Position numbers and translations under genes: made by a program. Positions 10,440 to 10,733 of a DNA stretch of 64,000 nt are shown here, in pieces. Every line of letters starts with the position of its first letter. Position 1 is the first letter of the stretch. Origin of the DNA: Escherichia coli (GTDB taxonomy: Bacteria; Pseudomonadota; Gammaproteobacteria; Enterobacterales; Enterobacteriaceae); assembly GCF_003991155.1 (NCBI RefSeq), contig NZ_CP031293.1; one strand, written 5' to 3'. Below the pieces are notes generated by a model that worked only from the letters and a program-made list of their open reading frames with translations, was not told where the DNA came from and searched no databases.

Positions 10440-10613
10440 ATGAGTTTTTTTAAAGCTCGTAATTAATGGCTAAAACGAGTAAAGTTCACCGCCGAAAATT
10501 GGGCGGTGAATAACCACGTTTGAAATATTGTGACATATGTTTTGTCAAAATGTGCAACTTCTCCAATGATCTGAAGTTGAAACGTGATAGCCGTCAAACA
10601 AATCGGCACTGAA

Positions 10614-10638
10614 TTATTTTACTCTGTGTAATAAATAA
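10614..10638 (+). promoter_or_regulatory. Candidate Mlc operator in the ptsG promoter region
   Basis: AT-rich dyad ttattttactctgtgtaataaataa (TTATTT..AAATAA) about 100 bp upstream of ptsG; resembles the remembered Mlc box. Confidence 0.45.
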
Positions 10639-10733
10639 AGGGCGCTTAGATGCCCTGTACACGGCGAGGCTCTCCCCCCTTGCCACGCGTGAGAACGTAA
10701 AAAAAGCACCCATACTCAGGAGCACTCTCAATT

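Follow-up and report, generated by a model that had tools for sequence, protein, structure and literature searches.

The window analyzed here, a stretch of DNA 64,000 nucleotides in length, is a segment of the E. coli chromosome that runs from yceD to minD. Its closest complete genome is FDAARGOS_497, from which it differs by two indels at 98.9% identity. Within the window, an open reading frame on the + strand (10734-12167, with its ATG at 10734) encodes PtsG, the glucose PTS enzyme IICB, a protein of 477 amino acids. PtsG from this strain is identical to K-12 PtsG at 476 of 477 residues. The sole amino acid difference is F344Y, where Tyr replaces the Phe of K-12 (codon 344, positions 11763-11765). 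Across the species, the 321 bases around the ptsG start have a matching locus that carries the ptsG annotation in 5424 of 5426 complete E. coli genomes.

Upstream of ptsG, the spacer that separates it from ycfH covers 294 bp (10440-10733). Aligned with K-12 MG1655, this spacer differs at one base, position 10604 on the + strand, which is C here and T in MG1655. The substitution is at -27 relative to the start of promoter P1, between the CRP site and the proximal operator described below, and it falls in columns that are not conserved between genera. The C allele is common among E. coli, as a 61-mer that carries it occurs in identical form in 1452 of 5423 genomes (~27%). Judged by its sequence, the ptsG control region of this strain is of the textbook K-12-like type, which is already known, and it departs from K-12 solely by a common SNP at a nonconserved position.

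In K-12, ptsG P1 and its Mlc operator were reportedly described by Plumbridge and by Kimata et al., both in 1998. We placed the +1 of P1 at 10631 because the published mRNA numbering assigns AUACUCAG to A82-G89; in the same numbering, G76-A78 is GCA and C95 is C (PMC3089445, Rice & Vanderpool 2011). This classical numbering gives a ptsG 5′ UTR of 103 nt from P1 (10631-10733, + strand). The supplement of Kim et al. 2012 places transcription start sites 101 and 95 nt before the ATG, which correspond to 10633 and 10639 (PMC3415461). Both of these TSS-seq starts fall at the 3′ edge of the proximal operator.

The initial annotation had proposed that a dyad, TTATTTTACTCTGTGTAATAAATAA, at 10614-10638 matches the Mlc operator. 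According to published rules, an Mlc site is a 23-bp quasi-palindrome in which the only invariant positions are TT at -6 and -5 and AA at +5 and +6; Mlc sites have A/T at ±11, where high-affinity NagC sites carry C/G, and are AT-rich from ±7 to ±11 (Brechemier-Baey et al. 2015, PMC4288165; PMC1874608). The position given for the dyad proved exact, and every one of these Mlc features is present in it. The 23-bp core of the 25-mer, TTATTTTACTCTGTGTAATAAAT (10614-10636), which we refer to as the proximal operator, has TT at 10619-10620 and AA at 10630-10631 (±5,6), and this is the sole TT-N9-AA register in the dyad. There is a T at each of the ±11 positions (10614 and 10636), and 10 of 10 positions at ±7-11 are A/T. 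The obvious arms, TTATTT/AAATAA, are centered 1 bp to the right of the register set by the invariant TT/AA. By manual comparison, the arms of the operator are symmetric at 6-7 of 11-12 positions, making it a quasi-palindrome. The 25-mer is unique in the window, and allowing up to 3 mismatches yields no further match (0 expected).

The proximal operator is centered at 10625, or -6 of P1. Because it spans -17 to +6 of P1, the dyad is a promoter operator and not a leader element; its earlier description as part of the ptsG leader applies to the last 6 bp, which are transcribed, while the dyad is otherwise promoter DNA. A published oligonucleotide described as the ptsG "Mlc-binding site" contains the sequence of the proximal operator verbatim (PMC2936295), and ptsG-lacZ is the standard Mlc reporter (PMC4288165). 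Binding of Mlc at this site in the strain, and derepression in an mlc mutant, are predictions that draw their support from sequence identity to K-12.

A second Mlc-type operator, TTTTTTTAAAGCTCGTAATTAAT, is found at 10445-10467, 6 nt past the stop codon of ycfH. This distal operator is centered at 10456 (-175 of P1) and also has the TT-N9-AA pattern, with T at 10445 and 10467 (±11) and A/T at 10 of 10 positions at ±7-11. It would belong to promoter P2, an assignment reportedly based on the 1998 work of Plumbridge and of Kimata. The distance from the distal to the proximal operator in the window is 169 bp. The distal operator, the spacing between the operators, and the conserved putative CRP site at -40.5 (see below) were all absent from the initial annotation. 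Between the distal operator and P1 there is also a hairpin, CACCGCC-N8-GGCGGTG (10487-10508), whose stem is kept across genera while its loop varies; it could be the terminator of ycfH or could lie at the 5′ end of a P2 transcript.

We quantified how distinct the two operators are from the rest of the window. The strict rule WWWWWTT-N9-AAWWWWW has 6 matches in 64 kb compared to 0.81 expected, and two of them lie inside the 294-bp ycfH-ptsG spacer; the remaining four fall in AT-rich intergenic DNA elsewhere. Applied to K-12 as a positive control, the rule also recovers the sites upstream of ptsH, manX, malT, and mlc. We also carried out the matrix scan for Mlc sites that had been suggested for this region, using a strand-symmetric position weight matrix (PWM) built solely from Mlc-regulon promoter sites other than those of ptsG (ptsH, manX, malT, and mlc). 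In this test, which is partly circular because the training sites were picked using the literature rule, both ptsG sites come out at or near the top: over the whole window (~64,000 start positions, one strand), 10445-10467 ranks 1st and 10614-10636 ranks 2nd-6th, and among the 3801 intergenic positions tested, the distal operator is 1st and the proximal operator 2nd. Elsewhere in the window, ATTATTTATGGGTGGCAATAAAA (50259-50281) fits the Mlc/NagC rule with a PWM score equal to that of the ptsG operators. The surrounding DNA, near ymgL/ycgX, is AT-rich, and the match may be due to chance.

To follow these elements across Enterobacterales, we used 120 loci from representative genomes, retrieved by a degenerate pattern for the first 13 ptsG codons. 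The genera covered were Escherichia, Citrobacter, Enterobacter, Klebsiella relatives, Yersinia, Serratia, Rahnella, Pectobacterium, Dickeya, Erwinia, Pantoea, Edwardsiella, and Hafnia, plus three Vibrio loci. Operators were counted wherever the upstream sequence was 300 bp or longer, which was the case for 109 loci. The proximal operator is present in all 109 of these loci and the distal operator in 99, positioned 158-179 bp upstream of the proximal one. For the 96 non-Vibrio pairs, the median center-to-center distance between the operators is 168 bp (sd 2.2), and 85 of the 96 pairs have a distance of 167-169 bp; the distance from operator to ATG, by comparison, has an sd of 9.1. Between the operators, 45 of 145 columns are at least 80% conserved. 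In some Citrobacter, Pseudocitrobacter, one Enterobacter sp., and one Serratia sp. (loci L014, L065, L109, L059, L061, L023, and L120), the proximal operator is 188-233 bp from the ATG, compared to the usual ~110 bp. This long distance implies ~80-120 nt of extra leader, as suggested for L014, L065, and L109 by their matching leader sequences.

A phase-locked spacing of ~168 bp, or ~16 helical turns, would fit cooperative binding or looping. Paired operators are described at other loci: repression of nagE-nagB involves two operators and a DNA loop (PMC4288165), and Salmonella hilE P3 also has two operators, for which a distance of 98 nt is quoted, compared to 169 bp at ptsG (PMC1874608). We regard it as improbable that repression of ptsG depends on tetrameric Mlc forming a phased DNA loop and, as a separate matter, that the C/T difference at -27 tunes the strength of P1. 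If the former were true, the looping constraint may be one not yet demonstrated by phylogenetic spacing analysis. As a minor outcome of our analysis, the conserved operator spacing of ~168 bp could motivate a looping test.

The same operator features bear on which protein would recognize these sites. NagC is a paralogue of Mlc, and a NagC operator here would place ptsG in the N-acetylglucosamine regulon. The published logos of Mlc and NagC can hardly be told apart, and cross-repression is possible when protein is overproduced (PMC4288165); likewise, the PWM used here does not discriminate between Mlc and NagC. NagC operators such as those of nagE-nagB and galP share the length, the TT/AA invariants, and the quasi-palindromic form of the ptsG sites, but high-affinity NagC sites have C/G at ±11 where both ptsG sites have the T at -11 and +11 that is the Mlc signature. 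In addition, ptsG serves as the reference Mlc target and is not repressed by wild-type NagC (PMC4288165), and the sequence in this strain is identical to that of K-12, where this was tested. Considering these data, we find a NagC operator very unlikely and Mlc the better assignment.

A still weaker suggestion is that the AT-rich dyad is mere promoter DNA, be it a -10 region, a discriminator, or sites for Fis or other nucleoid proteins, with no dedicated repressor, so that AT-richness by itself would account for the match to the Mlc rule. Fis and ArcA sites have been reported in the ptsG promoter, one ChIP-qPCR study saw no enrichment of Mlc at ptsG under its conditions (PMC8846999), and the four other AT-rich intergenic matches to the Mlc rule could be cited in its favor; however, the placing of two rule-perfect sites in a single short spacer, their top ranks among intergenic PWM matches, the retention across genera of the TT/AA columns and of the 167-169 bp spacing despite drift in the intervening sequence, and the published use of this sequence as an Mlc-binding probe and of its lacZ fusion as a reporter leave this reading with hardly any credibility.

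Compared to other Mlc-regulon operators (ptsHI P0, manXYZ, malT, and mlc, as well as Salmonella hilE P3), the ptsG sites share the 23-bp quasi-palindrome and its position overlapping or next to a promoter. They differ in that the central 9 bp of the ptsG operator, ACTCTGTGT, is without the CG-rich center found in ptsH, mlc, and malT.

Upstream of the proximal operator, a CRP-type site, AAACGTGATAGCCGTCAAACAA, occupies 10580-10601. Its center at 10590.5 is -40.5 relative to the +1 of P1, which is a class II position, and CRP is known to activate ptsG (PMC8846999, PMC8085971). The core of the site, CGTGA-N6-TCAAA, has 2 mismatches to TGTGA-N6-TCACA, and the sequence match alone is no better than chance. 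In a scan for CRP sites, also suggested by the initial annotation, matches to the consensus in the window are not above chance (20 compared to 26.7 expected), but there is a conserved site at a fitting position. Most columns of this site are at least 80% conserved and many are at least 95% conserved among 105 unique promoter blocks, at a fixed distance from the operator, and they are among the best-conserved columns of the alignment across genera. Given that consensus matches are not above chance, we base the putative assignment of the CRP site on its position and conservation. A promoter scan did not detect P1, which is expected of a CRP-dependent promoter; the scan returned only one weak σ70-like site (10542-10570), matching no known start. 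Outside the ptsG region, TGTGATCCAGATCACA in the comR-bhsA spacer (21871-21886) contains a perfect CRP core palindrome, the sole zero-mismatch match in the window.

The second regulatory element of interest is in the transcribed leader. Pairing of the small RNA SgrS with ptsG mRNA is said to have been described by Vanderpool and Gottesman in 2004 and by Kawamoto et al. in 2006. Using K-12 SgrS (77367-77593) as the query, we searched ptsG mRNA from 10631 to 10880 for duplexes window by window, penalizing each RNA for the energy needed to open it. The best interaction on the mRNA pairs 10706-10725 (+ strand; mRNA nt 76-95) with SgrS 168-187, with a hybrid energy of -27.8 kcal/mol, or -16.7 kcal/mol after accessibility penalties. 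The duplex has a 5-8-4 pattern in which GCACC, AUACUCAG, and GCAC pair with SgrS 183-187, 174-181, and 168-171, respectively, and its core is at 10712-10719. The Shine-Dalgarno sequence AGGAG (10718-10722, + strand), 11 nt before the ATG, is covered by the predicted duplex. Thus, SgrS is predicted to pair around the Shine-Dalgarno sequence as the initial annotation had stated, and the duplex at the ribosome-binding site (RBS) is a stable one. When the full-length leader was instead paired with full-length SgrS, the predicted duplex, 145 nt at -64 kcal/mol, was meaningless; we used the windowed, accessibility-corrected scan in its place.

The predicted duplex agrees closely with published data for this interaction. 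The 5-8-4 pattern has been published for E. coli (Horler & Vanderpool 2009, PMC2760817). Footprints have been found at ptsG G76-A78, at A82-G89, and up to C95, and at SgrS G168-U181; A82-G89 pairs with SgrS C174-U181, and compensatory mutations map to these bases (PMC3089445). The duplex predicted here spans exactly the footprinted nt 76-95. The string that had been quoted as the paired region, actcaggagcactctcaattATG (10714-10736), was only partly the right one. It includes the 3′ part of the target annotated in the literature (-27 to +4), but its tctcaattATG part is not needed, and the core of the pairing begins 2 nt, and the full duplex 8 nt, upstream of the string.

Several comparisons address whether the predicted energy is distinctive. 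In 300 dinucleotide shuffles of 10690-10750, the mean was -14.2 and the best was -23.4, with 0 of 300 reaching the observed energy (z = -5.3). C85 and C87 of the target, which are opposite the essential SgrS bases G178 and G176, are both C in this leader. Introducing the sgrS1 mutation (G176C/G178C) in silico reduced the energy to -15.6, a loss of 12 kcal/mol, and the compensatory change C85G/C87G restored -27.8. Among the 60 annotated start regions in the window, scored with opening energies included, ptsG ranks 1st, the next best being -11.2 (mean -6.2, sd 2.6). In a scan of both strands of the 64 kb by hybrid energy only, ptsG was approximately 7th; about six other places, mostly in genes or antisense, were equal or better. 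Raw hybrid energy is therefore not specific, and because other places match it, the specificity of the SgrS site comes from its position and accessibility. Raw energies against the SgrS pairing region that are as good or better (-28 to -30 kcal/mol) were found at 30897-30926 (+ strand), 25179-25212 (- strand), and 16143-16176 (- strand), in lolE, mfd, and lpoB/thiK, respectively; these are presumably chance matches by raw energy alone.

Within the predicted fold of the leader, two 5′ hairpins (10639-10656 and 10663-10684) leave the target region largely open. The overall fold of the leader is not unusual (z = -1.1). An Rfam search of 10300-10900 (E ≤ 1) found no described cis-regulatory RNA family and returned only a spurious viral stem-loop at 16 bits.

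Conservation of the pairing region was examined at two scales. Within the species, a 61-mer around the region has an exact match in 5140 of 5424 E. coli genomes. Across genera, 112 of 121 leaders have ACTCAGGAG before the ATG, and a block, GCAC-N3-TACTCAGGAGCAC, is visibly conserved. In Hafnia and Erwinia endophytica, the leader reads ATTCAGGAG. One could argue that the RBS block is kept for translation initiation only and that its complementarity to SgrS is incidental, since AGGAG is a strong Shine-Dalgarno sequence that would be conserved anyway and equal hybrid energies occur elsewhere in the window. We consider this most unlikely. The conservation in those 112 leaders reaches 5′ of the Shine-Dalgarno sequence (GCAC..TACTC), whereas the three Vibrio loci retain CAGGAG without the flanks. 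Furthermore, the conserved ptsG 5′ UTR sequence is confined to genomes that have SgrS (PMC2760817), the published footprints and compensatory mutations are at exactly these bases (PMC3089445), and neither the shuffled sequences nor the other start regions in the window reach the energy at ptsG. Conservation as an SgrS target fits these observations better than conservation for initiation only.

The gene for SgrS is not in the window, as had been stated earlier: an Rfam scan of the whole window finds only isrC, and a string search of the window for the SgrS core gave no match. As a control, the Rfam model for SgrS (RF00534) was run on both E. coli sgrS alleles and scored 229 bits with each. The mlc and crp genes of the strain likewise lie outside the window. 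Of 5426 E. coli genomes, 5399 have sgrS, which falls into two allele classes, one at least 99% identical to K-12 (3230 genomes) and one ~88% identical (2157 genomes). We compared three sgrS loci (L002:1868-2094, L010:401-626, and L011:401-624), two of which represent the divergent class. In these two examples, leuD directly follows sgrS without setA, and one copy has a frameshifted sgrT. The differences of the divergent alleles are only at nt 132-161 and in the terminator region; nt 162-186 are identical to K-12, and the pairing region is invariant in the three alleles examined. The divergent SgrS alleles pair with the leader of this strain at -28.4 and -30.8 kcal/mol. Because the divergent class keeps nt 162-186 and pairs with these energies, the pairing prediction holds for either sgrS allele class.

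Side by side with K-12 ptsG P1, the operator, the CRP site, the start site, and the 5′ UTR are identical, with the same TT-N9-AA register, the same A/T at ±11, and the same -17 to +6 placement; the one differing base, C for T at -27, is outside all conserved elements. Likewise, nothing differs in the SgrS target, where nt 76-95, the 5-8-4 arrangement, and the overlap with the Shine-Dalgarno sequence are those of the K-12 SgrS-ptsG pairing. We are highly confident that the region is a native E. coli ptsG promoter, operator, and leader that functions as described for K-12.

In such a scheme, cAMP-CRP bound at -40.5 (10580-10601) would activate P1, with a +1 at approximately 10631-10633. The ROK-family repressor Mlc, bound to 10614-10636, would cover the -10 region and the start and thereby block RNA polymerase, and the distal site at -175 probably helps this repression. 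According to the literature, dephosphorylated PtsG would sequester Mlc at the membrane during glucose transport, and ptsG would be induced. Under glucose-phosphate stress, SgrS together with Hfq would pair over the RBS, stopping translation and leading to RNase E-dependent decay, again as described in the literature. For this strain, binding by the proteins, sequestration at the membrane, and the parts played by Hfq and RNase E are taken from published work; our own computations cover which sequence features are present, how distinct they are statistically, where they lie with respect to mapped starts, and how they are conserved in E. coli and Enterobacterales.

For its main glucose transporter, the strain thus has a control region that is intact and K-12-like, a result that matters little beyond annotation. 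Because the control region is intact and K-12-like, knowledge of Mlc induction, CRP dependence, and SgrS stress relief is transferable to the strain. The locus is also a useful positive control, in that both elements had been located to within a few bases from the sequence alone.

Two minor observations concern the differences between the window and FDAARGOS_497. At ~47782-47796, the window lacks ~1.5 kb that FDAARGOS_497 has between rluE and icd, containing DUF1493 and STM2901-family genes. The Rfam match to isrC, an Hfq-binding small RNA, is at 62597-62719 on the - strand and scores 145 bits. It lies within a 1.26-kb stretch (61529-62787) that is missing from FDAARGOS_497 and is located beside autotransporter remnants near minE.
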